Shown: positions 1 through 45,614 of the stretch, piece by piece
How the letters are laid out: every line of letters starts with the position of its first letter
Position numbering within the stretch: the first letter of the stretch is position 1
NCBI GenBank assembly: GCA_964016885.1
Contig: CAXHJY010001277.1
Span: 1 to 45,614 of the forward strand
Length of the DNA stretch: 45,614 nt
Direction: 5' to 3'
Source of the DNA: Eledone cirrhosa
Lineage: Eukaryota
Translations under genes and position numbers: made by a program
The notes under the pieces: model-generated
The model's input: only the letters and a program-made list of their open reading frames with translations
Told to the model about the DNA's origin: nothing
Database searches by the model: none

Positions 1-195
1 TGATATTCTAGACTTTTTCACTGGAATTGTTGATGAAATGGTAAACAATAAAATGTAGCAGATGATATTTGTGAGGAATCAACCGACCATAGATGTTATC
101 AGTTAGCAGACGCTAGTTAAACCAAATATTATTGCGATGGTTAATCACGATAACAGCAAAGGAAACACTGCTTTATTATATTACCTTTAACGGAG

Positions 196-414
196 GGCGG
201 TGGATTGGCAGAGTCGTTAAGATATCATACAAATGATTAGCTGTATTTGTTCCGACTCTCTATGTTTGAGTTCAAATCCAGCTAAGGACAACATTGCCTT
301 TCATCCTTCTTGGGCTGATAAAATAAAAGTGCCAGTCAAGTACTAAGGTTTATTTAATCGACTTTTCTCTTTCCTCAAAATTTCCGAACTCATGTCTAAA
401 TTAGAAATCATTAT
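196..414 (+). mobile_element. tRNA-derived SINE, family A
   Basis: A-box-like TGGCAGAGTCG and B-box GAGTTCAAATCC, then a body similar to TTGCCTTTCATCCTT..GATAAAATAAAGTACCAGT and an (ATT)-rich tail; more than 10 related copies in the window. Confidence 0.8.
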
Positions 415-1693: not shown

Positions 1694-2420
<727 letters not shown>

Positions 2421-2488
2421 AAAAAGAGATGAAATCGAAAATGCAACTGAGGTCTTATTTTAAAAAAAATATATATATTTATTTGGTT

Positions 2489-2526
2489 CCTTTACCGGTT
2501 TCGCAGTTCTTCTGCTTTTCAAAAGG
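2489..2526 (-). ncRNA. Minimal type-I hammerhead ribozyme (U3:A8 variant), mirror copy
   Basis: Exact reverse complement of 2597-2634. Confidence 0.7.
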
Positions 2527-2596
2527 TGAGTTGAGATGGAGGGTCTGTGGTTTTTCTCACATCTGAGAAAAACCACAGACCCTCCATCTCAACTCA

Positions 2597-2634
2597 CCTT
2601 TTGAAAAGCAGAAGAACTGCGAAACCGGTAAAGG
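2597..2634 (+). ncRNA. Minimal type-I hammerhead ribozyme (U3:A8 variant)
   Basis: CCTT-TTGAAAA-GCAG-aagaa-CTGC-GAAA-CCGG-TA-AAGG: helix I CCTT/AAGG, helix II GCAG/CTGC, palindromic helix III ACCGGT, GUA cleavage triplet. Confidence 0.72.
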
Positions 2635-2704
2635 AACCAAATAAATATATATATATTTTTTTTAAAATAAGACTTCAGTTGCATTTTCGATTTCATCTCT
2701 TTTT

Positions 2705-3176
<472 letters not shown>

Positions 3177-3603
3177 ATACAATACCCACCAGTCAACACT
3201 ATCTGCGTAATCTCTACTCTATATTACAAGGACCAATTGATGCGTTGTTTGTTTTTAAGAATTCATATAGGGAAATTTTTGTATTTCAGAAATACTGAAA
3301 ACTAAAAATTCTCAAGTTCCCTTCAAATAAATCACCTCCCTACTGGGAAAAAAAACATTGAAGCTGAACTGAAAGAATCCTGTAAAGAGAAACAAACAAT
3401 GAAATAACTAGATGCATGTATTTCGAATGTTTCTGGATCTGTAAAGGTTTATAACTGGGCCAGGGCAATGTCTATCAACGCGATGAATCAATAGTTAAGA
3501 CAATAGTTAACACCGGTATAAATAAAAACAAACAACATATCAATTGGTCCTTGGAATATCGAGTAGAGATAAGGTAGATAGAGTTGACTGGTGGATATTG
3601 TAT
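3177..3603. repeat. Inverted repeat, 81-bp arms
   Basis: 3177-3257 versus the reverse complement of 3523-3603, about 9 mismatches by manual alignment; 265-bp spacer. Confidence 0.85.
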
Positions 3604-3645
3604 GTGGTACCTCAGCATACCACTAGCTATAATGACTAAAACATA

Positions 3646-3696
<51 letters not shown>

Positions 3697-3740
3697 CGTA
3701 TATTGTTGACGGCCGTAGTAAAGTTTAAATATTCATTATA

Positions 3741-3796
3741 TTTTACCTGTTTCTCACAGGGTCATTATCTAATGATCCTGTGTGAAACAGGTAAAA
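3741..3796. repeat. Hairpin with 27-bp arms
   Basis: TTTTACCTGTTTCTCACAGGGTCATTA-tc-TAATGATCCTGTGTGAAACAGGTAAAA, 2 mismatches. Confidence 0.9.
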
Positions 3797-3837
3797 ATCT
3801 ACAGTAACAAGACTCACTATTTAGCCTTAATAAAAAA

Positions 3838-3916
<79 letters not shown>

Positions 3917-4064
3917 TAAATATATATATACGTAGATAAATCTACCAAAATGTACGGTAGTGTCCAATCCGTATGAAGAACTCAATGTAATCCAAATATC
4001 ATGAAAAGAGATGTATTCAAAAAGTGTTTTCGATGAAAAACACAGGAATACAGAGTCAAGATAA

Positions 4065-4430
4065 ATTAATAAAAATAATGAATAAAAACAAAGAAACAGT
4101 TCCTTATATTAAAAAAAATCATCATTTTACGATCGTTTGTAGGATATATATGTGTGTGTTGGTATGTATAATATATAGATCCATGTAAAAGTTTTACAAA
4201 CTATCAGAGGGAATATACATACCTACACATATATATGCTGTCTTCTTATTTCTGAAGACAACATATATATATGTAGATATGTATATTCCCTCTGATAGTT
4301 TGTAAAACTTTTACATAGATCTATATGATATACATACCAACACACACACATAGATATCCTAGAAACGATCGTAAAATGATGATTTTTTTAATATAAGGAA
4401 CTGTTTCTTTGTTTTTATTCATTATTTTTA

Positions 4431-4435
<5 letters not shown>
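4065..4435. repeat. Foldback palindrome with about 180-bp arms
   Basis: 4065-4245 is the reverse complement of 4254-4435 with scattered mismatches; 8-nt loop TTATTTCT. Confidence 0.9.
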
Positions 4436-4483
<48 letters not shown>

Positions 4484-4485
<2 letters not shown>

Positions 4486-5175
4486 GTAGGGAAAACTACG
4501 TATGCAGTAGTAATCGCAGTGATAGACACATTTTTCAAATGCAGGTGGGTTTTATAGAAGTGGTTGATAGCTTCCGGTACCTAGGTGATCAGATTAGCAT
4601 GTTCCGAGGCCATAGTATCTAGAATAAGGACGTGTTGGAAGAAGTTTATGGAGCTGCTTCCTCTGTTGACAATAAAGGGTTTCTCCTTGCGTACGAAAGG
4701 CCGGTTATATGATGCCTGTGTGAGATGCGCGATGCTGCATGGTAGGGAAACATGGGCAGCAACTGCAGAAGATATGCGACGGCTGGAGAGAAATGAAGCA
4801 AGCATGCTCCGTTGGATGTGCAATATCAATGTGCGTGAACGACCAAGCATAGATGAGTTGAGAGAGAAACTGTGTATAAGAGGGATAAGTTGTGTTGTGC
4901 GAGAGAGAAGACTGAGATGGTATGGACATGTGATGCGCATGAAAGATGACCGCTGGGTAAAGAAATGCAAAGAAATCCCAATAGAAGGAAGACGCAGTAG
5001 AAGACCACGAAAGACATGGGCAGAAGTGGTAAGAGCAGACCTCAAATCGCTGAAACTCACGGAGGAGATGACGAAGGACGGTGACAAGTGGAGAGATGCT
5101 GTGCTGAATAGGACCCGCCCCACCCTTGCAAGCAGGGAAAAGCGGACGTAAAATGATGATGATGATGATGATGAT
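4484..5175 (+). mobile_element. 5'-truncated RTE-type LINE (RT C-terminus) with (GAT)n tail
   Basis: IEVVDSFRYLGDQIS, KGRLYDACVRCAMLHG, RRLRWYGHVMRM, RRPRKTW motifs; ends GGACGTAAA(ATG)n; paralogous to 22800-23401. Confidence 0.9.
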
Positions 5176-5280
5176 ATATATATATACATACACATATATA
5201 TATTATTATTATTAGACAGATTAAAAGTTTAAGCAAACAATTTCTGCTTTCACTCCAAAGCGGGATCTTCTGCTCTACGG

Positions 5281-5286
<6 letters not shown>

Positions 5287-5364
<78 letters not shown>

Positions 5365-5481
5365 TTTATATATATATACATATATTTATATATATATATA
5401 CATATATTTATATATATATACATATATTTATATATATATACATATATTTATACATACATATATTCATATATATATATATAC

Positions 5482-5516
<35 letters not shown>

Positions 5517-5546
5517 CATATATTTATATATATATACATATATATA

Positions 5547-5580
<34 letters not shown>

Positions 5581-5621
5581 CATATATATATATACACACA
5601 TATATATATACACATGTATAC

Positions 5622-5672
<51 letters not shown>

Positions 5673-5720
5673 CATACATATATATATATACATACATATA
5701 TATATATATACATACATATG

Positions 5721-5753
<33 letters not shown>

Positions 5754-5787
5754 ACATACATTTATATATATATATGTGTGTGTGTGC

Positions 5788-5836
<49 letters not shown>
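5287..5836. repeat. (TA)n/(TACA)n microsatellite
   Basis: Direct reading. Confidence 0.97.
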
Positions 5837-5840
<4 letters not shown>

Positions 5841-7792
5841 GGCTTCTAACATGACAATAACCATAATTGCTACAACAAATTTAAAAGCTTTCTGTACATC
5901 TCTAATTAATACTATTTTCCTAATGTCAGTTCAATGAAACTGGTGCTTTATGCATATTTTTCATTAAATTGGTTCTACAAATTAGGCCCTATTAAAATAC
6001 CAGCATCAAAATATGATAAGTTGAACTGTTTAAATAGAAAACATTAATAAAATATTTTGCTTTTGAACAAAGGGGTTATTCTCACCTGTTAGTATTAAGA
6101 TTCCTTCAAAAAACATATTGTTGTCTCTTTTAACCGTTCTTAAGAAAAGCTAAGATGAAGAATGATAGATGGCGGTGCTGTTTACTGCTGAACGTGTCCT
6201 CAGAACTGATTCCTATCAATCTATCCCTCCCTTTTACTGTAAATCAAGGATAGGGTTCTATTAGTTGGACCCCACCTTAGAAATTCAAACAGTGTTACTG
6301 ATGGAGGTGGTAGTTGAGATATGTCCAAATTAACATCATAGGAAACAATAGTAAACAGAAAATAGATTATTATTGAAAAAAAAACTCGGGTTGGAACTAA
6401 CTTAAATAAATGGATTTCTTTTATACTAATTGCCAATAATGGCCGAATTTAAAAAGAATATGTGCTGTTACCCGGCTAACAAGATACCTATACAAACAAA
6501 GTCAGAGTATATATAAATACAGTTTCCTGTTTGATTCAGAAATAGCATACATGTTAACTAATTTATTTGCAATTAACAGTCATCTATCTCCTTTGGAAGC
6601 TTCTCTGTGCAACTATATCATCATCATCTATATCATCATCATCATTTATACTAGAAGTAAATAAATATGTACCAACGAATCATTGTACACTGAATCACTC
6701 CCTAAAATATGTTATTCATCAAAAAACTAAAACAAAAACAAAAATTGTATGAATGATGGCTTCTGTAAACAGTTAAGAGACAAAAGACGTCCAAAAAACT
6801 CCACCTATTAAGCACGAAGTTTTCTATTGAAACATTGTTTAGATGTCTAAGTAATAACTATGTAAAAAATATTCTAGCGTGGGAAAAGAGGAATATTTAC
6901 TCAGAACTGCAGTTCTCTAAGCACTGACCAAGTTTACTTAAGCGCTCAACATATTAATTAATAGTCATAATGCTAGATACTACAATACATACTGTAATAC
7001 ATTTTCTAACAGACTCATTCCTTACCTAAAAATATCAATCCTTAACTAAATAACTATATACATGGCAAAGACTGTTGATTTTTTGTTGATTTTTTTTGTT
7101 TGGTTTGTTGTTAAATTTCTTAACAAAGATACCGTCTAAAAGTCAAAGTATAAGCTATTGAAATTGAAATTCAATTATTTCAATGGAAGGATTAGTTAAA
7201 GAATTGTAAAGAAAGGCTGGTGTCAGCTGTTGGCAGGAGATCACCATATATAATTCCCTGTAGTGTACATTAATATAAATCTAGTTGGGAATAAACCAGT
7301 GTTTCAGATGTGTGCATGTTAATGGAAGGCGCTCCATCTCATCCAACATACATCAGAAGGAGTACAAATTATAAATAAAATAAACATTAGATAAATAAAA
7401 TATAACCCAAAACAGATGATACTGCACCCCTGCAGATATACGACTCATGGTCTTCGCTTTTCACTCAGATATATTAAGGTGGAGTTTATTATCTGTTGCT
7501 GAGACCAATAGAAGTGAAGAATTATATAATCATTCGTGTTCCATCCAGCTCAGTGATGTGTTAAAGACTAAGACTCTTCACTATGTTGATTCTTTCATAT
7601 ATAGATATAAACAGCTATGTGAATAGTTGCAGATAATTGCTGTAAGTAGAGGGAGAACTATTATTTCTGAATGTCCGTTATATTCCAGTACTGAGTTTAA
7701 ATGTCCAGTAACCTTGAAATAGGTAAGAAGATATCATTCATATTTAACTTCACTAGATAATATTTAATTCAATTGGATCACTATAACTTTAT

Positions 7793-8070
7793 GGAGGCGT
7801 GTGACCTAGTGGTAAGTGTGTTAGGCTTACGATCATAATGTCATGAGTTTGATTCCAAGGCTGTGTTGTATGTTGTGTTCTTGAATAAAACACTTCATTT
7901 CACGTTGCTCCAATATGCTTAGCTGAAAATAGTACCAACAATAGATGGGGGTTTAACCCTGTGGCGGACTGGCATCCTTTCCAGGGAAGGAGTCTTGTAT
8001 TCTCAATCGCTTAACACCACAGAAACCGAGATAAGCTCCTGCCTGATGAGTCTCTGGGCTCGAGGCAGTC
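7793..8070 (+). mobile_element. tRNA-derived SINE, family B
   Basis: GGAGGCGTGTGACCTAGTGG head, GAGTTTGATTCC B-box, body CACTTCATTTCACGTTGCTCCA, 3' stem-loop; homologous over its length to 33980-34266. Confidence 0.75.
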
Positions 8071-8242
8071 ATTAGAACTGTAGACAATAACTTTAATCTC
8101 ATCATCTCATTTTCAATGGCTCCAAGACTTTAAATAAGAATGCAGAAATATGTAGAAAGTGATTAATATTTGTAATTAAAATTAAAAGTTATATTTCGAT
8201 GTAGAAGATACTTGGCCTAAGATCTCTCGGGCGTAAAGCGCT

Positions 8243-8525
8243 AGAATATAGAGGTAGTGCAAAGAATGATGTGCTCGTGCGCAGAAATGTTATATAGATA
8301 GCTTATATAATGGGACGAAAACCCTTAAAAGACTGTAAAAGAAGTTGCCATCGGCCACTATGAGGAATTTAACCCCATATCTCCCTGGTATTTGAGGTTA
8401 CATTCCTCATAGCGACCGATAGCAACTTTTTCCGTCTTTTAAGGATCTTCAACATATTTTATCAGCTATTTGTGTAGCATCTTTCCGCATGAACACATCA
8501 TCTTTTATATTAACTCTATATTTCT
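8243..8525. repeat. Old degenerate palindrome (MITE-like)
   Basis: About 130-bp arms, e.g. CCTTAAAAGAC..AAGTTGCCATCGGCCACTATGAGGAATTTAACC versus GGTTACATTCCTCATAGCGACCGATAGCAACTT..GTCTTTTAAGG. Confidence 0.75.
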
Positions 8526-8757
8526 ATATATTTCTATCCAGTTAGCATCTAATTCTTTACACATCTGCTTACTCAAATACATAGGATATCGTGTCTTAAC
8601 ATGATGTGAACCATTCATCAAAGAATAGAGCTTGTTGGAATAGATCGATGGCTTTTAGATTGATTCATAGGGTGGTTAATTGATCCTATGTCTTCCGAGT
8701 CAATCAATCACCAGGGAACCGCAAGTTGGATATTATTGGCATCTAACTTATGTGAGC

Positions 8758-8792
<35 letters not shown>

Positions 8793-8879
8793 TAGATAGA
8801 TATATGTGTGTGTGTATAAATGTATATATATGTGCGTATGTGTATGCATATATGTGTGTATGTTGTATATATATATATA

Positions 8880-9210
8880 CTGTGTAACCCCGGCATTCGC
8901 GGCGGTCCCGGTTATTCATGGAATATTCCTTGGAACCTAACTAATGATTGTTCGTGGAAACCACCGCATATTCGCGGAATCGTAAATATCTTCCGCGATT
9001 TGTTTATGGATTTTTCGTGGCAATATATATATTTTCACGGTTTTTAACGCTAAATTATTAATAACAATATACCATATTTCCTGGTCTATATCGTACGTTA
9101 TGTTTTGACGTTTATAGGCATTTTTATGGACCACATCCATTATTCGCGAGTTTTTTACTCTTCACGTGTGCTCTGGGACCATAACCTCCGCGAATACCGG
9201 GGGAAAACTG
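8880..9210. mobile_element. pogo/Tigger-like MITE
   Basis: TIRs CTGTGTAACCCCGGCATTCGCGG and CCGCGAATACCGGGGGAAAACTG, flanked by TA on both sides; internal TATTCGCG subterminal motifs. Confidence 0.7.
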
Positions 9211-11325: not shown

Positions 11326-11451
11326 TTAATGACATTGGTTATAGTTTGATATCATCGTGTATATGGTGGGTTTAAGATTAATTAATTTAACTTTTAGTTC
11401 ATGTACCAGGGCTGCAACAGTTTCAATGAAATCCTCCCCTCTAGTCCCTGC

Positions 11452-12023
11452 ACATGGTAGCTATACTACATGGTAGCTATACTACATGGTAGCTATACTA
11501 CATCACACGGTAGCTATACTACATCACACGGTAGCTATATTACATGGTAGCTATACTACACCACATGGTAGCTATACTACATGGTAGCTATACTACATCA
11601 CACGGTAGCTATACTACATCACACGGTAGCTATATTACATGGTAGCTATACTACACCACATGGTAGCTATACTACATGGTAGCTATACTACACTACATGG
11701 TAGCTATACTACATCACACAGTAGCTATATTACATGGTAGCTATACTACACCACATGGTAGCTATACTCCATGGTAGCTATACTACACCACATGGTAGCT
11801 AAACTACATGGTAGCTATACTATACCACATGGTTGCTATACCACATGGTCGCTACACTAGATGGTAGCTATACTACACCACATGGTAGCTAAATTACATG
11901 GTAGCTATACTACATGGTAGCTATACTACATAGTAGCTATACTACATGGTAGCTATACTACATGGTAGCTATACTACATGGTAGCTATACTACGTCACAT
12001 GGTAGCTATATAACATGGTAGCT
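11452..12023. repeat. Minisatellite, 16-bp unit CATGGTAGCTATACTA with 21-bp variants
   Basis: About 30 units; variants insert CACCA or CATCA. Confidence 0.97.
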
Positions 12024-12278
12024 AAATAACAGCAGCTGTATTTATCAATAGTGTTTGAGAAATGTTTTATTAATTTTGTTTGTTTGTTTTTATTGATTAC
12101 ATTATGTCACGTTATTTTTCTTATTGTCGCTGCTTGGCTCAATAAATGGCAGTCGTATGGAAGGAGACATTGCAAACCAAGCAATATAAACTATAAACTA
12201 TAGCAGCAATAAAAACAAACAAACAAAATTAATAAAACATTTCTCAAACACTATTGATAAATACAGCTGCTGTTATTT
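12024..12278. repeat. Perfect 72-bp inverted repeat (MITE-like)
   Basis: 12024-12095 is the exact reverse complement of 12207-12278; 111-bp spacer; no TSD seen. Confidence 0.92.
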
Positions 12279-12345: not shown

Positions 12346-12802
12346 ACGATGAATATAAAATGAAAGTGCTTTTATAAAAGAATTTATTAGGTATTGACAT
12401 ATGTTTCTATAACAGACGGAATACCTATGTATCGCTGCTTGCGTAATCATATAATGTTAGCAAGTATTCGATAGCAAATGTATAATCAGTTGTCACTTCT
12501 TCAGAGATATTGGATAAATTGGAAAAAATCAGAAAAATTGAAGTATTTATATTAGTTGTAAGAAAGGAAGAAGAGAGGGGATATATATATATAGTTTCTG
12601 AATTTGTTTAGAAAGATTCTTTATCTGAAAACGTGTGTTGAAACCGATATTGTTATGCTTTGGGAGGATCATGTTGCCAATAAGAAACACATGCACCAGT
12701 TGCTTTCACTCCAATTTATTATAAAGTAATTTTATAAATTTAAGAATTTATAAATTTCCGGTTGGTTGGTTGGTTCCACAACCGGACGGTTGTTCATATA
12801 TT

Positions 12803-12845
12803 GTCAAAGTTCTTTCGTCACACATTCTGTGACCTCTTCAGTGAC
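12803..12845 (-). ncRNA. Minimal type-I hammerhead ribozyme in a Penelope-like pLTR fragment
   Basis: Minus strand reads GTCA-CTGAAGA-G-GTCACA-gaatg-TGTGAC-GAAA-GAAC-TT-TGAC: canonical core, 6-bp helix II, 4-bp helix I; AATAAA downstream on the same strand (about 12715-12720). Confidence 0.75.
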
Positions 12846-12895
12846 TGGGGATTCTTTTCTTTGTTTTTGTGCCTCTCCTTTGTTCTGAAAATACA

Positions 12896-13058
12896 GCTGG
12901 ACTAAAAAGTCACACTCGTTCAGCGCATCGGTAGGGGTTCTCCTACATGGATATAAAGTAGTGGCCGTACTCGAAAACGAATTGGCAGCCACCATGTATG
13001 TATGTATGTATGTATGTATGTATGTATGTATGTATGTATGTATGTATGTACGTATGTA
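12896..13058 (+). mobile_element. 5'-truncated copy of the RTE-derived non-autonomous element with (TATG)n tail
   Basis: Near-identical to the 3' ends of 24003-24576 and 36353-36923. Confidence 0.9.
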
Positions 13059-13613
13059 TAATGTGCTGTGGTGGGAGAGAGATGAAGAAGAGAAAAACAG
13101 AGAAAATAGAAGCTATTGTCGATGTTGGCCTCGATGTCCGCCCATATTGAAAAGCTAATAAAATCATAGCTTATTATTAAAATAAATTAAGATTGGGTGT
13201 GTCGAAAATGATCGAGACAGAACGTTGAGGGATATGAAGTTCATAGAAAAATGGCAAACTGAAATGCGATAAAAATCTACCTCTTCCCCCTCTCATGCAT
13301 GTTGCTGTTACTATTTCTTCCGCTTATTACCACTACCATTGCTTCTTCAGCCCTAAAAATATACCTTTATGCTTGCCCGGGTAGGTGGATGGATAGGTAG
13401 GTAGATATATTGGTTGATAGATAAGTGTGAACGTTTTTGTTTCTACATATGGATGAATATTAGAGAAATTGATGGGATTGTATGAGAAGGTAGATAGAGA
13501 ACCACCACTTATTCTTATTGGCAACATGACCCTCCCAAATTATAACAATATCGGTTTCAACACACGTTTTCAGATAAAGAATCTTGCTAAACAAATTCAG
13601 AAACGAAATATAT

Positions 13614-13662
<49 letters not shown>

Positions 13663-15173: not shown

Positions 15174-15374
15174 AATAAAAGCAAAAACAAAAACCATAAC
15201 CTACATAAAAATAACCACTACCACAGTCACCAACAGTCTTCTAAACAGGAAACTTCTTCCTCTTTTTTAGCCATAATGAATCTGGCAAAAGAACTGGAAA
15301 AAAACATTCGAGCTATCACCCAGCACCACCCTCCACTATCACCCCACTGCACAAACTCCCATTGCTGCCATTAA
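15174..15374 (+). CDS. Probable C-terminal remnant of LINE ORF1
   Basis: Open frame [12 protein letters not shown]...[27 protein letters not shown]...HCCH* directly upstream of and overlapping ORF2; truncated 5' by microsatellite; no homology test possible. Confidence 0.5.
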
Positions 15375-18300
15375 CAAACAAACAAATTAACAACACACCA
15401 AAACAATTAAAACCATCCACTCTCGCCTCTACATTTTTGCTTAACGCCCAAGGCATCAGCCCTTCCACCAATACTCAAAAATGGAAGATCAAATTCCTGG
15501 AGGACTGGATTGATGTCCATCCAAACCACATCCCTTTCTTCGTCCTCACTGAAACCCATCTCAGTAACCTCCACTTGGAAGCCGAGGTGAAAGTGAAAAA
15601 TTTCAAAGCCATCCGTGCTGATCGCGCTGGCAGAAGAAAGGGCGGAACTGCCATTTATGTCCATAATTCTTTCTCAACAGAGGCTATGAACATATTCACT
15701 AATGGATACTGTGAGGCAGTCACTGTATTCAGTCAAACCAACAACCTATTAGTAGTTGGGCTCTATAGGCCACCCCAAACGCCTGTACCATGCTTCAAGG
15801 AATGCCTCAACAGCATAAAGTGTTTCATCCAAGAGTGTCACCCTGACAACATCTTAATGATGGGGGACTTCAACCTCCCCGGAGTTGACTGGTCCACAAA
15901 CACCCTGCCACCAGGTTCTTCTGCCTCAACCTCTGACAGGGAAGCTGTGGAATCGCTTCTTGACTTCATGGATGATTTCTTCCTATCCCAACTAGTGCTC
16001 GAACCAACGAGGTGCCACAAAAACGTCCTAGACTTAATTTTCAGCAATCACACTGACAATATCCACAATATTGCAGTGGAGAAAACTCTACTCTCTGATC
16101 ATGACATGGTTCTCTGTGATCTGAGATTCCACCGTCCAATATATAAACCCAATGTCATTTCTCCTGTCCATCCGTTTGACGCTATGGATTTCCACAATGC
16201 AAACTGGGAAGCGATCAGTCATGATCTTGCACATGTCGACTGGTCCTTCACGCACACTCATACACCCACTAACATCAAAAAGTCCTGGCAGACATTTGTG
16301 GACACTGTTACAAACATATGTGCTAAACACACCCCATTAAGAACTATAAACAAATCTAAGAGCAGAATCCCTAGAAATAGAAAAACGCTCATCAGAAAAA
16401 TTAAGAGAACGAACAAAAAAATCAACAAGCTGAAATACTGTCAGCAGCAACACATCAACTTGACTGCCATTTCATCACTAGAGATTAAAAAACATAACCT
16501 CCAAAACAACATAATGTCCCTCATCAACAATCAGAGAAGAGCTGAAGAGGCCTGGGCCATTGAGAAGATCAAACTCAATCCCAAAGTGTTCTTTTCATTT
16601 GCAAAAAAACACAAAATCACTGGCTCTACTGTTGGCCCTCTAATTGATGAAAATGGCACTCTTCAAGACAATGCTAAAACCATGGGTGAGATACTGCAGA
16701 AACAATACTGCTCTGTTTTCAGCAATCCTGATATGGCCGATCTGGGCTGTATCGGCGATGTTACTCCCCATTACACCTTATCGGACATAACGTTTGGCGC
16801 CCCTGATGTCTTGGCGGCAATAAAGGAAATCAAGCATAATTCAGCAGTAGGTCCCGATAGGTTCCCTGCTTGTGTCTTGAAGGCGTGTCAACACCAACTT
16901 GCTTCTCCTCTTGCCAATCTGTGGCGGAACTCACTGGATGCTGGATATGTGCCAGAAAACCTTCTATCCCAGTCTGTTGTCCCAGTTTTCAAAAAGGGAA
17001 ACAAATCCCTTGCCGTGAATTACCGTCCAATCTCACTCACCTCTCATATCATTAAGGTATTTGAGCGAGTGGTGAGATCGCGAATGACCCACTTCCTTGA
17101 GAGTAACAATATGCTGAACTCCAACCAGCATGGATTCCGTAATGGAAGGGATTGCCTGACGCAACTACTGCATCACTTTGATGACATTTTGAGAGCCTTG
17201 GGAGAGGGTTCCAACACTGATGTTATCTACCTTGATTTCAGCAAGGCCTTTGACAGGGTTGATCATAACATTCTACTGAGAAAGCTGTCCAATATTGGTG
17301 TCACTGGAAAGCTGCTGCAGTGGATCAAGAGCTTCCTGTCAAACAGAACCCAACATGTTGTAGTTGAGGGAGTCAAATCAAGCCCAGCCAAAGTCAGTAG
17401 TGGAGTCCCACAAGGCACTGTGTTGGGCCCACTTCTCTTCATCATCTATATTAATGACATCACTGACATCATCAAACACAGCAACATTAAAATTTTCGCT
17501 GATGATTCCAAGCTCCAAAAGGTCATCAATGGCGTGGATGACCGGATAAGCCTTCAGTCAGACCTACTGGCTGTTACCCAATGGGCAGAAAAGAACAACA
17601 TGTTACTGAACGAAGACAAATTCGAACTGATCCACTTTGGAAAAGAGGATGCTCTGAAACTCCCGTACTCCCTTCCCTCCGGGGAAACTCTCGTGGCATC
17701 TAACAACATCAGAGACTTGGGAGTAACCGTGGACAGCAACATAAGCTGGACCACGCATATAAGCAGCAAAGTTGACATGGCCCGCAGAATGTGTTCCTGG
17801 ATCCTCAGAACCTTCCAGTCGAGAGATTCCCGTACCATTATCCTTCTCTTCTCTACTTTCGCCCGACCACACCTTGAATACTGTTGTCCACTGTGGTCTC
17901 CCCACACGAAACAAAGTATCATGAAACTTGAAGCTCCTCAAAGGGCAATCACGAAAAAGATAGATGGCATGTCAGACCTTGACTACTGGGGTCGATTGGA
18001 AAACCTGAAACTTTACTCACTCCAACGTCGCCGTGAGCGTTATATTATCTGCATGATGTGGAAAATGTTCCATCATCACTGCCCAAATGATGTTGGCATC
18101 GCCTTCAAGATACACCCAAGGCTTGGGCCCCGTGCTATCCGTCCCATTCAAAAATCTAAATCGCAACTCATAACAACAATACGGCACAATTATTTCACCT
18201 CAATCGGCCCTGCTCTCTTCAACATCACACCAGGACACGTCAAAACAGAAACTGACCACACAAAATTCAAGAAGTCTTTGGACAAATTCCTCCAAGTAAT

Positions 18301-18382
18301 CCCGGACAAACCACCCACACCCGGATATGTCTCCGCAAACAGTAATTCTCTTCTCGAATGGGCCATGGTGCCCAAATCCTGA
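15362..18382 (+). CDS. LINE ORF2: apurinic-like endonuclease plus reverse transcriptase (CR1 clade)
   Basis: EN motifs LNAQG, LTETHL, GGTAIYV, YRPP, GDFN, LDL, SDH; RT motifs YRPISLTS, QHGF, YLDFSKAFDRVDH, GVPQGTVLGP, FADD, RDLGV; CR1-type RPHLEYC..WSP and SLQRRR. The frame is open from 15245 and the listed start codon is TTG, not ATG. Confidence 0.97.
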   Translation: MLPLTNKQINNTPKQLKPSTLASTFLLNAQGISPSTNTQKWKIKFLEDWIDVHPNHIPFFVLTETHLSNLHLEAEVKVKNFKAIRADRAGRRKGGTAIYVHNSFSTEAMNIFTNGYCEAVTVFSQTNNLLVVGLYRPPQTPVPCFKECLNSIKCFIQECHPDNILMMGDFNLPGVDWSTNTLPPGSSASTSDREAVESLLDFMDDFFLSQLVLEPTRCHKNVLDLIFSNHTDNIHNIAVEKTLLSDHDMVLCDLRFHRPIYKPNVISPVHPFDAMDFHNANWEAISHDLAHVDWSFTHTHTPTNIKKSWQTFVDTVTNICAKHTPLRTINKSKSRIPRNRKTLIRKIKRTNKKINKLKYCQQQHINLTAISSLEIKKHNLQNNIMSLINNQRRAEEAWAIEKIKLNPKVFFSFAKKHKITGSTVGPLIDENGTLQDNAKTMGEILQKQYCSVFSNPDMADLGCIGDVTPHYTLSDITFGAPDVLAAIKEIKHNSAVGPDRFPACVLKACQHQLASPLANLWRNSLDAGYVPENLLSQSVVPVFKKGNKSLAVNYRPISLTSHIIKVFERVVRSRMTHFLESNNMLNSNQHGFRNGRDCLTQLLHHFDDILRALGEGSNTDVIYLDFSKAFDRVDHNILLRKLSNIGVTGKLLQWIKSFLSNRTQHVVVEGVKSSPAKVSSGVPQGTVLGPLLFIIYINDITDIIKHSNIKIFADDSKLQKVINGVDDRISLQSDLLAVTQWAEKNNMLLNEDKFELIHFGKEDALKLPYSLPSGETLVASNNIRDLGVTVDSNISWTTHISSKVDMARRMCSWILRTFQSRDSRTIILLFSTFARPHLEYCCPLWSPHTKQSIMKLEAPQRAITKKIDGMSDLDYWGRLENLKLYSLQRRRERYIICMMWKMFHHHCPNDVGIAFKIHPRLGPRAIRPIQKSKSQLITTIRHNYFTSIGPALFNITPGHVKTETDHTKFKKSLDKFLQVIPDKPPTPGYVSANSNSLLEWAMVPKS

Positions 18383-18767
18383 ATTGAAAGACTTCGCCAG
18401 GTGGTGCTATTAAGTTAGACATGGCCTGGGCCAATACTGGCCAAAACATTTCAAAGTTATTCAAAGTTATATAAATTAGAAATTATAAGCTTTCACCGTA
18501 TTTTAGACTAAAGAAATTTCTAGCCTGATAGTGGGGTTTATAACCCTCGGAGAAATGGAAAAAGATGAGTGTTGCCGTACATGTAGAGCAAACATCACGG
18601 GCGCTCTATCTCAAAATTATTTTTGAAAAGCATTAGAAATGCGCAACCGGTAAAAGTTTAAAACCAAAACTGAATACTAACCAATACTATTACTAATTTT
18701 TGCTTATTCCTAATTAAACTATTTTTCACTGGGAACAATTTGTCAGCATTTTCTCTTCCGTTTACCA

Positions 18768-24002: not shown

Positions 24003-24651
24003 CCCAGGACAACCTGTCACATGGTCGGGTCGTTGGCGACTAAACTGGCAACCTCACCAAGGTTTCTTGGTGAGGGGGGTGACTTTGAACATCCTGCAGG
24101 ACTAAAAACAAAACCTGTCAAAAGGTCAAAGGGCAAAGGAGCTCTTAAGAGTCAATGGCCATCCAAAATCACCGGGAGAGATGACCCCTTAGCCTTTGTC
24201 AAGGCAGAATAGTAGGAGAAGGAAAACTCTGATATAACACCTGCAACCCTGATGGTATCCAATGATGTTGACTTGTTCTTCTTTTTGGTAAATATCATCT
24301 TGGTTAAGAGAGTGGGACTGGCTTTGTACAGAGCCTATGCTCACTATAAAATCTTCACGGCACAGGCATTGCTTTATATCTGGAGATCTCTCTGCACTTG
24401 TCGTCACATGGTACCAGCACTATGTGTCAATAATTGTCACAAGTGTAGTGTTTGTACCAGAGTTTTCAAGTCGCTGGCTGGACTAAAAAGTCACACTCGT
24501 TCAAGGCATCAGTAGGGGTTCTCCTACATCGATATAAAGTAGTGGCCGTACTCGAAAACGAGTTGGCAGCCACCATGTATGTATGTATGTATGTATGTAT
24601 GTATGTATGTATGTATGTATGTATGTATGTATGTATGTATGTATGTATGTA
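24003..24651 (+). mobile_element. Non-autonomous RTE-derived retroelement (about 575 bp plus (TATG)n tail)
   Basis: Highly similar to 36353-36923; 3' part encodes [22 protein letters not shown], an RTE-type C-terminal zinc finger; no RT; flanked by TATG repeats. Confidence 0.8.
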
Positions 24652-26467: not shown

Positions 26468-27149
26468 GGCATAGGTTAATTATAACGTTCGCGAAAATGA
26501 AAGTGAATTTTCTGACAAGTGAATGTGTTTTTTTTTTTTTTTTTTTACAATGTAAGTTACGATACACTATTTGTTTATCTACAACAGGTCTCTATAGTGA
26601 TATGGTGTTAATTAGTATTGCGTGTGTGATTATTTTCTCTTATATATATATGTGTGGGTGTGTATATGTGTGTATATATATGTGTGTCTGTATGTATATA
26701 TATATGTGTTTGTATATATATATGTGTTTGTATATATATGTGTTTGTGTCATCATCATCGTTTAGATGTTTTTGTAATATCTTGCCAAAGTTGGCACCAA
26801 CTATAAACAAATTAAGGCCGGGTCATAAGAAGGACAGAGAATGATAAGGGATTTGGGTAAAAACATCTAAACGATGATGATGACACAAACACATATATAT
26901 ATACAAAAACACATATATATATATACATACAGACACACATATATATACACACATATACACACCCACACATATATATATAAGAGAAAATAATCACACACGC
27001 AATACTAATTAACACCATATCACTATAGAGACCTGTTGTAAATAAACAAATAGTGTATCGTAACTTACATTGTAAAAAAACAAAACAAACACATTCACTT
27101 GTCAGAAAATTCACTTTCATTTTCGCGAACGTTATAATTAACCTATGCC
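26468..27149. mobile_element. Mutator/Foldback-like non-autonomous element with about 300-bp TIRs
   Basis: Arms 26468-26773 and 26859-27149, 85-bp spacer, G-starting TIR, exact 9-bp TSD TTTTATGAT (26459-26467 and 27150-27158). Confidence 0.85.
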
Positions 27150-36352: not shown

Positions 36353-36923
36353 CCAGTACAACCTGTCTCATGGTCGGGTCGTTGGCGACTAAACTGGCAA
36401 CCCCACCAAGGTTTCTTGGTGAGGAGGGTGACTTTGGACATCCTGCAGGACTAAAAACAAAACCTGTCAAAGGGCAAAGGAGCTCTTAAGAGTCAATGGC
36501 CATCCAAAATCACCGGGAGAGATGACCCCTTAGCCTTTGTCAAGGCAGAATTCTAGGAGAAGGAAAACTCTGATATAACACCTGCAACCCTGATGGTATC
36601 CAATGATGTTGACTTGTTCTTCTTTTTGGTAAATATCATCTTGGTTAAGAGAGTGGGACTGGCTTTGTGCAGTGCCTTTGCTCACTATAAAAGCTTCACG
36701 GCACAGGCATTGCTTTATATCTGGAGATCTCTCTGCACTTGTCGTCACATGGTACCATGGGCCCAACACTATGTGTCAATAATTGTCACAAGTGTAGTCT
36801 TTGTACGAGAGTTTTCAAGTCGCTGGCTGGACTAAAAAGTCACACTCGTTCAGCGCATCAGTAGGGGTTCTCCTACATGGATATAAAGTAGTGGCCGTAC
36901 TCGAAAACGAGTTGGCAGCCACC
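36353..36923 (+). mobile_element. Non-autonomous RTE-derived retroelement, second full copy
   Basis: Collinear with 24003-24576 apart from two small indels and point changes. Confidence 0.85.
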
Positions 36924-37378: not shown

Positions 37379-38071
37379 TTTTCTCTTTCTCTTAATTTCG
37401 AGTATATTTTTTTGACCGGCCACCTTCCTGGTGGCAAGGTTGTAAAAGAAAAGAAATTGTCATCCCTTGAATCGCAAGAATGTTTTGCATATTTTGAAGG
37501 TGCCAGCTATCGCAGCCATTTGTAGACTATGAATTAGGGAGCTGCGCTTTTTGTCCGCAAATCCAAGTTCGGTCATACTTTGGTCCAAGCGGGTTGGTAT
37601 ATAACCCGTAGCACCAATAATGATGGGTATGAAGCTAAAGGTGTATCTTGGATACTGGATTTGTAAGCTCCTCATCAATGGTCCGTAGATGTCCTCCTTC
37701 TCCTGTATTTTTCTGACAACGTTTACATCAAGTGGGCAGCTGATCTCCACAACAGAACACGTTTTCAATGTGTGGTCCCAAACTACAATATCAGGCCGGT
37801 TGTGCTTTAATTTGGTGGCAGTTTTTATTTTCAGGTTCCACCAGTATTCCTTAGTGCCATCTGTCTCAATATATTCTTCCTCGTTTGTTGTTAATTTTGT
37901 TTTCCGAAGTGCGTTCCAGATAGTTCTAGCTATCCCATCGTGTCTCATGGGGAGGTAATAGCGAGATGACATTCTTTCGCAGCTGGCAACAATGTGGCTT
38001 ACATCCTCGATCTTTGTTTTACATAGCCTACATTTATTGTCAGCTGCTGGCCCTCCTCTTTTGTGCAGCAG
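37379..38071 (-). mobile_element. 5'-truncated R4/Dong-like non-LTR retrotransposon (CCHC plus restriction-like endonuclease)
   Basis: Uninterrupted frame 38071-37460: [47 protein letters not shown]; 3' UTR hairpin GCCACC/GGTGGC (37419-37435); both ends in TATG satellite. Confidence 0.88.
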
Positions 38072-40184: not shown

Positions 40185-42070
40185 TAACTTTGAATAACTT
40201 TGAAATGTTTTGGCCAGTATTGGCCCAGGCCATGTCTAACTTAATAGCACCACCTGGCGAAGTCTTTCAATTCAGGATTTGGGCACCATGGCCCATTCGA
40301 GAAGAGAATTACTGTTTGCGGAGACATATCCGGGTGTGGGTGGTTTGTCCGGGATTACTTGGAGGAATTTGTCCAAAGACTTCTTGAATTTTGTGTGGTC
40401 AGTTTCTGTTTTGACGTGTCCTGGTGTGATGTTGAAGAGAGCAGGGCCGATTGAGGTGAAATAATTGTGCCGTATTGTTGTTATGAGTTGCGATTTAGAT
40501 TTTTGAATGGGACGGATAGCACGGGGCCCAAGCCTTGGGTGTATCTTGAAGGCGATGCCAACATCATTTGGGCAGTGATGATGGAACATTTTCCACATCA
40601 TGCAGATAATATAACGCTCACGGCGACGTTGGAGTGAGTAAAGTTTCAGGTTTTCCAATCGACCCCAGTAGTCAAGGTCTGACATGCCATCTATCTTTTT
40701 CGTGATTGCCCTTTGAGGAGCTTCAAGTTTCATGATACTTTGTTTCGTGTGGGGAGACCACAGTGGACAACAGTATTCAAGGTGTGGTCGGGCGAAAGTA
40801 GAGAAGAGAAGGATAATGGTGCGGGAATCTCTCGACTGGAAGGTTCTGAGGATCCAGGAACACATTCTGCGGGCCATGTCAACTTTGCTGCTTATATGCG
40901 TGGTCCAGCTTATGTTGCTGTCCACGGTTACTCCCAAGTCTCTGATGTTGTTAGATGCCACGAGAGTTTCCCCGGAGGGAAGGGAGTACGGGAGTTTCAG
41001 AGCATCCTCTTTTCCAAAGTGGATCAGTTCGAATTTGTCTTCGTTCAGTAACATGTTGTTCTTTTCTGCCCATTGGGTAACAGCCAGTAGGTCTGACTGA
41101 AGGCTTATCCGGTCATCCACGCCATTGATGACCTTTTGGAGCTTGGAATCATCAGCGAAAATTTTAATGTTGCTGTGTTTGATGATGTCAGTGATGTCAT
41201 TAATATAGATGATGAAGAGAAGTGGGCCCAACACAGTGCCTTGTGGGACTCCACTACTGACTTTGGCTGGGCTTGATTTGACTCCCTCAACTACAACATG
41301 TTGGGTTCTGTTTGACAGGAAGCTCTTGATCCACTGCAGCAGCTTTCCAGTGACACCAATATTGGACAGCTTTCTCAGTAGAATGTTATGATCAACCCTG
41401 TCAAAGGCCTTGCTGAAATCAAGGTAGATAACATCAGTGTTGGAACCCTCTCCCAAGGCTCTCAAAATGTCATCAAAGTGATGCAGTAGTTGCGTCAGGC
41501 AATCCCTTCCATTACGGAATCCATGCTGGTTGGAGTTCAGCATATTGTTACTCTCAAGGAAGTGGGTCATTCGCGATCTCACCACTCGCTCAAATACCTT
41601 AATGATATGAGAGGTGAGTGAGATTGGACGGTAATTCACGGCAAGGGATTTGTTTCCCTTTTTGAAAACTGGACAACAGACTGGGATAGAAGGTTTTCTG
41701 GCACATATCCAGCATCCAGTGAGTTCCGCCACAGATTGGCAAGAGGAGAAGCAAGTTGGTGTTGACACGCCTTCAAGACACAAGCAGGGAACCTATCGGG
41801 ACCTACTGCTGAATTATGCTTGATTTCCTTTATTGCCGCCAAGACATCAGGGGCGCCAAACGTTATGTCCGATAAGGTGTAATGGGGAGTAACATCGCCG
41901 ATACAGCCCAGATCGGCCATATCAGGATTGCTGAAAACAGAGCAGTATTGTTTCTGCAGTATCTCACCCATGGTTTTAGCATTGTCTTGAAGAGTGCCAT
42001 TTTCATCAATTAGAGGGCCAACAGTAGAGCCAGTGATTTTGTGTTTTTTTGCAAATGAAAAGAACACTTT
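40185..42070 (-). mobile_element. CR1-clade LINE copy 2, 5'-truncated (RT only)
   Basis: Corresponds to 16583-18469 of copy 1; differences seen are a 1-bp deletion near 41671 (CCC to CC, frameshift) and a silent change near 40821. Confidence 0.97.
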
Positions 42071-45219
<3,149 letters not shown>

Positions 45220-45614
45220 TAACTTTCAAAATAACTTTCAAATGTTTTGGCCTGTATTGGCCCAGGCCATGTCTAACTTAATAGCACCACCTGGCGAAGT
45301 CTTCAATTCAGGATTTGGGCACCATGGCCCATTCGAGAAGAGAATTACTGTTTGCGGAGACATATCCGGGTGTGGGTGGTTTGTCCGGGATTACTTGGAG
45401 GAATTTGTCCAAAGACTTCTTGAATTTTGTGTGGTCAGTTTCTGTTTTGACGTGTCCTGGTGTGATGTTGAAGAGAGCAGGGCCGATTGAGGTGAAATAA
45501 TTGTGCCGTATTGTTGTTATGAGTTGCGATTTAGATTTTGAATGGGACGGATAGCACGGGGCCCAAGCCTTGGGTGTATCTTGAAGGCGATGCCAACATC
45601 ATTTGGGCAGTGAT
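45220..45614 (-). mobile_element. CR1-clade LINE copy 3, 3' end (runs off the window)
   Basis: Matches 40185-40582 with a few homopolymer indels and a variant tail TAACTTTCAAAATAACTTTCAA. Confidence 0.95.

Follow-up and report, generated by a model that had tools for sequence, protein, structure and literature searches.

A Hammerhead Motif in a Probable Penelope-Like Repeat

Among the closest described counterparts of the motif considered here are the minimal hammerhead ribozymes (min-HHRs) in the pLTRs of metazoan Penelope-like elements (PLEs), where they are mostly single motifs (Cervera and de la Pena, 2014; PMC4209133). Their anatomy includes a long helix II, a helix I of 4-5 bp, an extra base between positions 9 and 10.1, and a G10.1-C11.1 pair. 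They are inactive as monomers and weak as dimers, and solitary copies come from truncated PLEs. Craig et al. (2021; PMC8557442) describe 5′ truncation, an inverted truncated copy, an optional tail of 30-40 bp, and a (TA)n bias as further features of PLEs, and 10 of the 26 Hydra and Repbase rows in its File S2 have U at the cleavage site, which is thus common in PLE hammerheads. For PAc, a Poseidon element of Anolis, Frangieh et al. (2024; PMC11167929) place the tail between two internal reverse transcriptase (RT) start sites, which lie in an AC-rich stem-loop, and describe an AT-rich target; the hammerhead cuts only with protein and is dispensable for insertion in vitro. Retrozymes are related to PLE pLTRs and can reach 10^5 copies, as in the axolotl, according to PMC7229834 and a preprint (10.64898/2026.07.22.740005). 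The role of PLE hammerheads is treated as still open in PMC8557442 and PMC11167929.

Octopus genomes are rich in such elements. PMC13282606, which does not mention ribozymes, gives 190 PLE families, accounting for 6.83% of the O. vulgaris genome, and PMC8967140 places Penelope among the abundant coleoid repeats. The hammerhead described here, from a 45,614-nt stretch of Eledone cirrhosa DNA (the window), belongs to a short repeat with thousands of variants and is probably the 5′-truncated 3′ end (pLTR) of a PLE family.

The Hammerhead Motif

The motif is a minimal type I hammerhead on the minus strand (12845-12803), recognised from its sequence, a descriptor scan with shuffles, its predicted fold, and the pattern of variants among contigs. 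Helix I pairs 12845-12842 with 12806-12803 (4 bp) and is followed by the core CUGAAGA (12841-12835) and by an extra G12834 between A9 and 10.1. Helix II (12833-12828 with 12822-12817) has six Watson-Crick pairs and is closed by G10.1-C11.1; then come GAAA (12816-12813), loop III GAAC (12812-12809), U16.1 (12808), and U17 (12807). The triplet is CUU, with the predicted cut between 12807 and 12806. A type III topology was ruled out by inspection.

The earlier note had described a well-formed minimal hammerhead on this strand, and the sequence is as it was given there. It is the sole match to a strict descriptor on either strand of the 45.6-kb window; block-wise dinucleotide shuffles gave a match in 1 of 400, and in none of 400 when 6+4 Watson-Crick pairs were required. 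Of the features of the min-HHRs in PMC4209133, the following are found: the CUGANGA ... GAAA ... UH core with helices I and II, the G10.1-C11.1 pair (G12833-C12817, pair probability 0.997), and the extra base at 9/10.1, which had rightly been taken for a known natural variant. A palindromic loop III, which is typical of min-HHRs and lies outside their published descriptor, is absent. Here the earlier reading, of a palindrome with one private change, did not hold up: GAAC is the majority form among the copies discussed below, so the family itself is non-palindromic.

For the hammerhead in isolation (51 nt), predicted pair probabilities are 0.90-1.0 in helices I and II and about 0 in helix III. 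In the 294-nt context of the element helix II is kept (0.87-0.89) and helix I is outcompeted, at only 0.04. The stability of a 61-nt hammerhead fold is unremarkable (z -0.68). A dimer helix III with the GAAC loop comes out at +2.4 kcal/mol, as against -5 to -8 for palindromic loops; two minor loop III variants form tandem G-A pairs, with dimer helices at -0.4 and -1.7 kcal/mol. Because the GAAC loop is non-palindromic and its dimer helix poor, self-cleavage is likely to be weak or protein-assisted. An Rfam scan of 12560-12990 at E up to 10 returned no hammerhead match, and the matches listed for the whole window at E up to 1 (150 of 250) include microsatellite-driven miRNA noise.

Several other strings were tried and set aside. 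A hammerhead-like string on the opposite strand of both arms of the inverted repeat (12625, 13573) has no counterpart of helix II, and variants occur freely at the first two of its flagged positions; another such string, at 13350, forms no helices at all. The ribozyme pattern itself had no matches in the metagenome and viral contig collections. A 20-nt terminal pattern matched four metagenome loci, none similar beyond the pattern itself, and a 17-nt pattern matched about 160 genome stretches against 139 expected by chance, with none of the 121 examined extending to a full ribozyme.

A Dispersed, High-Copy Repeat

Evidence for a family comes from contigs of the public sequencing runs X1, X4, and X6, matched to 12593-12993. 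Run X1 has 12,541 contigs on this stretch, X6 has 464, and X4 has 35. Among the 24 runs listed in a search of public runs, 19 contain part of the stretch and three contain half or more, and none of the listed runs containing it is an RNA run. Raw reads of a further run with the same organism label as X4 (X20) gave no match in 12.8 million records; organism labels therefore cannot be counted as species, and the family sequence in X4 may be foreign DNA.

Summed contig depth in X1 is 0.5-1.9 million over 12607-12872 and falls to 0.13 million at 12887-12900, the junction with a foreign piece. Contig depth thus delimits a copy of a dispersed, high-copy repeat at 12594-12887 (minus strand), composed of ribozyme, spacer, and 3′ module, truncated on its 5′ side at 12887 and likely a PLE pLTR remnant. 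Other copies extend beyond 12887 with sequence unlike that of the window, which can be seen for only about 30 nt. Mean bin depth in X1 is 1.85 million at the ribozyme, compared with 1.41 million for the piece of an RTE-like element next to it, which occurs three times in the window. Summed contig depth is not equivalent to copy number, and a naive estimate ranges from 5,600 to 170,000: the higher figure is depth divided by 9, the median depth of long or jointed X1 contigs, and the lower one applies if unitig overlap inflates the sum 30-fold. Copies number in the thousands at least, and likely between 10^4 and 10^5. A single-copy motif, the case that the earlier note had set against its own reading, is excluded by this abundance.

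The spacer (12706-12786, minus strand) has three predicted hairpins and varies between subfamilies, as judged from its fold, the contig joints, and the variants. Its fold has a z of -3.56, with none of 200 shuffles equally stable, and many variants fall at 12743-12795. It also contains an AATAAA hexamer (12720-12715, minus strand), which had been put about 85 nt after the hammerhead and read as a pLTR landmark. The hexamer is present, 86 nt past the predicted cut. As a landmark it carries no weight, because 39% of 2000 shuffles of that stretch contain one, and it is probably incidental.

Variation within the Ribozyme

Sites were counted as variable where another letter makes up at least 5% of depth. 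Over the three runs, these include 7 of the 11 free positions of the ribozyme and 1 of the 32 in its core or helices (Fisher p 7e-5); in X1 alone the corresponding figures are 4 of 11 and 0 of 32 (p 0.003). Variation in the core and helices is not significantly lower than in the flanks (1/32 vs. 26/251 positions variable, p 0.33), and the signal of constraint is a contrast within the ribozyme, not one against its surroundings. No compensatory double changes in the helices were seen at 5% or more. Tolerated variants include A to U at N7 and U17 to A (18% in X1). A fifth helix I pair at 12802 is found at 10% in X1 and 34% in X6, and loop III variants range from 0.2 to 10% in X1.

Five variants in X4 have one common depth value (103.5), and these equal depths suggest a subfamily in which helix I is longer, the triplet is CUA, and the loop would pair better as a dimer. 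The ribozyme has a depth of about 139,000 in X6, some 80 times the 1,700 of the 3′ module; the core therefore outlasts its flanks. The X6 bin covering loop III and the helix I 3′ strand has less depth than the core, and the abundant X6 form thus differs there.

The 3′ Module and Its Ends

Downstream of the spacer lies a conserved 3′ module (12594-12686, minus strand) that ends at (TA)n, defined by loose contig ends in X1, an open frame, and related peptides. The distance from the ribozyme to the 3′ terminus of the high-copy unit is 210-250 nt. Among the 18 of 356 loose X1 ends listed, there are two places where contigs run out into TA-rich DNA, one just before 12594, with 59 contigs, and the other just before 12647, with 47; the consensus of the loose ends is TA-rich, with an agreement of 0.62-0.63. 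The two fixed 3′ ends are 53 nt apart and amount to an optional tail.

Joints within contigs show a second kind of variation. Of 26 joints, 15 were listed, and six of these switch strand, four of them from the 3′ module, each in one or two contigs. The remaining nine leave out parts of the spacer. Several of them depart from 12682-12686, the point at which the second arm of the window's inverted repeat starts, and resume at 12788-12800. Head-to-tail joints, in which the 3′ end meets the 5′ part without a change of strand, are not found among the 15 of 26 listed.

Both arms keep an open 27-codon frame, which in the hammerhead copy runs from an ATG at 12672 (minus strand) to the end of the module. 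Variants in the frame are synonymous at one of five variant sites. A peptide search with it gave seven matches. Two of these, P0002 and P0003, are short database frames in which similarity ends at the same point, and they are likely other copies of the repeat; the other five are repetitive chance hits. An Atlas search with the short frame gave no usable match, and the peptide searches with it (three protein, one representative) reached no RT protein. In P0010, a gene model from Octopus bimaculoides, the first 27 residues are 73% identical to the frame. The remainder is unrelated to PLEs, with no Pfam match and no PLE domain, and its nearest named cluster is SWIM (12% of members, score 0.84), a lead only. 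The match points to an octopus as host, and does not by itself make the frame the start of a PLE ORF. P0010 may have borrowed a start exon or may be a prediction artefact, its remainder possibly of SWIM type.

The 1-kb Inverted Repeat

The earlier note placed the hammerhead inside a 1-kb inverted-repeat structure. The repeat is real: its arms, at 12584-12686 and 13512-13614, are identical at 97 of 103 positions, and the second arm is an inverted copy of the 3′ module (plus strand) adjoining a TA tract at 13622-13659. It is not the unit of the family. It encloses a foreign 98-nt piece and some 450 unrelated nt. The foreign insert (12896-13059, plus strand), identified from copies elsewhere in the window, consists of the final 98 nt of a short RTE-like element, 570 nt in length, followed by (ATGT)n. 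The 98-nt piece is 98% identical to 36826-36923 and 95% to 24477-24574, and other copies continue before 12896 into the RTE-like element's own sequence. The remaining 450 nt or so between the arms (13060-13511) show no similarity to the body of the element (52 and 225 of 300 shuffles score as high) or to anything elsewhere in the window.

Read along the minus strand from 13614, the order is the inverted 103 nt, about 450 nt, (ATGT)n with the 98-nt RTE-like end, eight filler bases, and the element from 12887 to 12594. Only the two outer ends of the whole border TA tracts, and on this account formation in one event is very slightly favoured. The structure may also represent two insertions, because the arms differ at six of 103 sites, including 12657, where the family is polymorphic, and the body of the element is separated from the inverted arm by 625 nt of other sequence. 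It is a composite particular to this locus. Inverted structures of this kind can be misfiled as MITEs in octopus repeat libraries.

Other Elements in the Window

A second hammerhead family is present, a U3-A8 variant at 2601 (plus strand) and 2522 (minus strand). Its 3′ region is unrelated to the 3′ module described here (187 of 300 shuffles score as high), and the suggestion that at least two unrelated hammerhead families occur in the window thus stands. The two copies belong to a 290-nt near-perfect palindrome (2418-2707) within a long TA tract, each arm carrying a U3-A8 hammerhead with a palindromic loop III; the palindrome is likely a second PLE family with an inverted end. A decayed third copy is found at 18591-18658.

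Six more palindromic or inverted-arm insertions (4067-4433, 8261-8505, 12025-12277, 3180-3600, 3741-3796, and 26468-27149) have no intact hammerhead, and several lie beside TA tracts. They may be further PLE-type ends or MITEs. The one at 12025-12277 adjoins a minisatellite (11451-12024) with a 16-nt core and higher-order periods of 37, 58, and 95 nt.

Non-LTR elements are also represented. An intact LINE ORF of 1045 aa with APE and RT domains is encoded at 15245-18382, and there are truncated copies at 40205-42069 (99.9% identical) and 45243-45614 (99.2%). All three are beside TA or TATG tracts, and they represent either a very young family or an assembly duplication. The RTE-like short element of 570 nt, at 24004-24574 and 36353-36923 and in part at 12896-12993, begins at a fixed 5′ position, is bounded by TATG tracts, and carries a C2H2 finger frame in its 3′ end; its abundance in X1 is comparable to that of the hammerhead family. 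On the minus strand at 37463-38071, adjoining a TATG tract, is the C-terminal fragment of a non-LTR element with a restriction-like endonuclease, assigned by a zinc motif (Pfam) and by a nuclease motif recognised by eye.

Origin of the Hammerhead Repeat

Several features of PLEs are found in the repeat. It has a hammerhead in what would be the terminal repeat, near the 3′ end. It is 5′ truncated and accompanied by an inverted truncated copy, represented by the second arm in the window and by the strand switches at 6 of the 15 listed joints. It has an optional tail between two fixed 3′ ends, of 53 nt compared with the 30-40 bp in print, and an AT-rich or (TA)n target, both outer ends bordering TA. 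The earlier note's reading as a PLE pLTR thus gains from the high copy number, the conserved core, the two (TA)n 3′ ends, and the inverted joints, and loses only the AATAAA landmark. That note had also reported no PLE ORF in the window, and this is borne out by two scans. A motif scan for RT and GIY-YIG in six masked frames of the window gave one spurious match, containing a stop, and a Pfam scan of 59 of the 138 window frames of 60 aa or more gave only LINE-type RT/APE domains and zinc fingers. No parent RT/GIY-YIG ORF linked to the family was found in the window or by the peptide searches.

Membership of a PLE family, the steps of insertion, and any cleavage are matters that we infer by analogy, with characterised PLEs as the model for insertion. 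The GIY-YIG nuclease of a partner element would nick a (TA)n tract. The partner's RT would then begin within the AC-rich 3′ module, at either of two fixed sites, so that copies end at 12594 or 12647. Where RT stops early, the product would be a solo pLTR without an ORF, and an inverted copy of the 3′ end would often be added. In source elements the ribozyme would be kept by selection, and precursor RNA would be cleaved on the 3′ side of U12807. Since helix III has two pairs and the loop is not palindromic, the cut would presumably be weak, made by a dimer or assisted by the protein of the element. The copy in the window is most likely a dead passenger.

A variant of this history, a good deal less likely though still worth entertaining, makes the repeat a self-standing, ORF-less SINE of about 320 nt driven by a PLE, with some 10^5 dispersed copies in octopuses and a conserved, non-dimerising hammerhead. 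Judging from the loose ends, such an element would begin about 20 nt 5′ of 12887, at a motif that we take to be YY1-like; in the window that motif occurs at chance level (10 vs. 9.3 expected). If such a SINE exists, the role of PLE hammerheads would look to be monomeric, protein-assisted, or non-cleaving, a question that the large set of variants would make testable.

Other origins would separate the repeat from PLE insertion altogether. It could derive, as a lone monomer, from a tandem non-LTR retrozyme, an element that spreads via circular RNA cut out by two successive hammerheads. A unit near 300 nt and a high copy number would fit, going by PMC7229834 and the preprint 10.64898/2026.07.22.740005, the latter of which also counts solo monomers, and the spacer is self-paired. 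Retrozymes as described in PMC7229834, however, carry ribozymes of the canonical type, and the one here is minimal, with a 4-bp helix I. The window moreover has a single unit, the loose 3′ ends enter TA-rich DNA rather than another unit, and the 15 of 26 joints listed include none that are head to tail, all of which make a retrozyme origin unlikely. A SINE-like element mobilised by a LINE and carrying a hammerhead, like the Schistosoma hammerhead SINEs, would also be short, dispersed, and very abundant, and with only about 30 nt visible 5′ of 12887 there is room for a Pol III head. A second 3′ end can also arise through internal priming where the sequence is AT-rich. No 3′ similarity was seen, nevertheless, between the repeat and any of five LINE-type ends of the window (141-288 of 300 shuffles reach the same score); the repeat has no poly(A) or repeat tail of its own, and strand-switch joints together with a fixed optional tail fit PLEs. 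This origin is quite unlikely.

The inverted repeat itself invites a different reading, in which the whole 1-kb structure is a non-autonomous DNA transposon with 103-nt TIRs, inserted at TA and carrying the hammerhead as a passenger. Two inverted arms that are 94% identical, each ending at TA, are what such an element would show. The arm would then be expected to outnumber the ribozyme, and it does not do so in X1 (1.22 vs. 1.85 million) or in X6 (1,700 vs. 139,000). Arm and ribozyme instead belong to one continuous high-copy unit, and other copies continue past 12887 into sequence unlike the interior of the window's structure, so a TIR element is very unlikely. That the motif is a chance arrangement with no history as a ribozyme is the hardest to credit. 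The missing Rfam match, the unremarkable folding energy, and a helix I outcompeted in longer contexts would all be compatible with it; a single match in 400 shuffles, variants that avoid the core and helices, and the selective abundance of the core in X6 would not. The reading as a truncated PLE 3′ end accordingly remains the preferred one in what follows.

Comparison with Known Systems

No published description of the family was found, although Repbase, Dfam, or published octopus libraries may list it. Solitary min-HHRs are common in truncated PLE ends, where their occurrence was described as early as 2014 (PMC4209133), and octopus PLEs with hammerheads are on record, so the locus on its own matters little. 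The more useful point is a very abundant family that is constrained at its ribozyme and yet has a non-palindromic loop III. Its thousands of natural variants would be good material for tests of dimeric against protein-assisted cleavage.

Animal non-LTR retrozymes, as portrayed in PMC7229834 and the preprint 10.64898/2026.07.22.740005, are similar in their length of about 300 nt, the lack of an ORF, and a type I hammerhead. They differ in being tandem and having canonical ribozymes, where the present family is dispersed in the data seen and its ribozyme minimal.

Hydra-1_Obim, a PLE of the Hydra clade from O. bimaculoides (Craig et al., 2021; PMC8557442, supplement), shares the (TA)n target, a hammerhead near the 3′ end, an identical 8-nt core, and U at the cleavage site. 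Helices I and II are different, and Hydra-1_Obim has an intramolecular helix III of 3-4 bp. Such a helix is given in the Hydra rows of File S2 of PMC8557442 and is not seen here, where the probability of helix III is about 0. Six short motifs from the window gave no hammerhead or terminal match in the Naiad, Chlamys, and Hydra consensus files of that supplement, in which line breaks could hide one.

PAc (PMC11167929) is similar in having two fixed 3′ ends downstream of the hammerhead, an AC-rich terminus, and an AT-rich target. Its ORF starts inside the ribozyme, in contrast to the candidate ATG here, 130 nt beyond the motif, and the present family has a 53-nt tail.

There remain the min-HHRs of PMC4209133, one variant of which, with U3-A8, is the second hammerhead family of the window. 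The present family departs from them in its non-palindromic majority loop III, in having G as the extra base where their consensus has H, in being known without a parent ORF, and in a copy number likely above their 2,000-9,000 per genome. It agrees with them in its type I topology, the 6-bp helix II and 4-bp helix I, the extra base after A9, the G10.1-C11.1 pair, and the many solitary copies.
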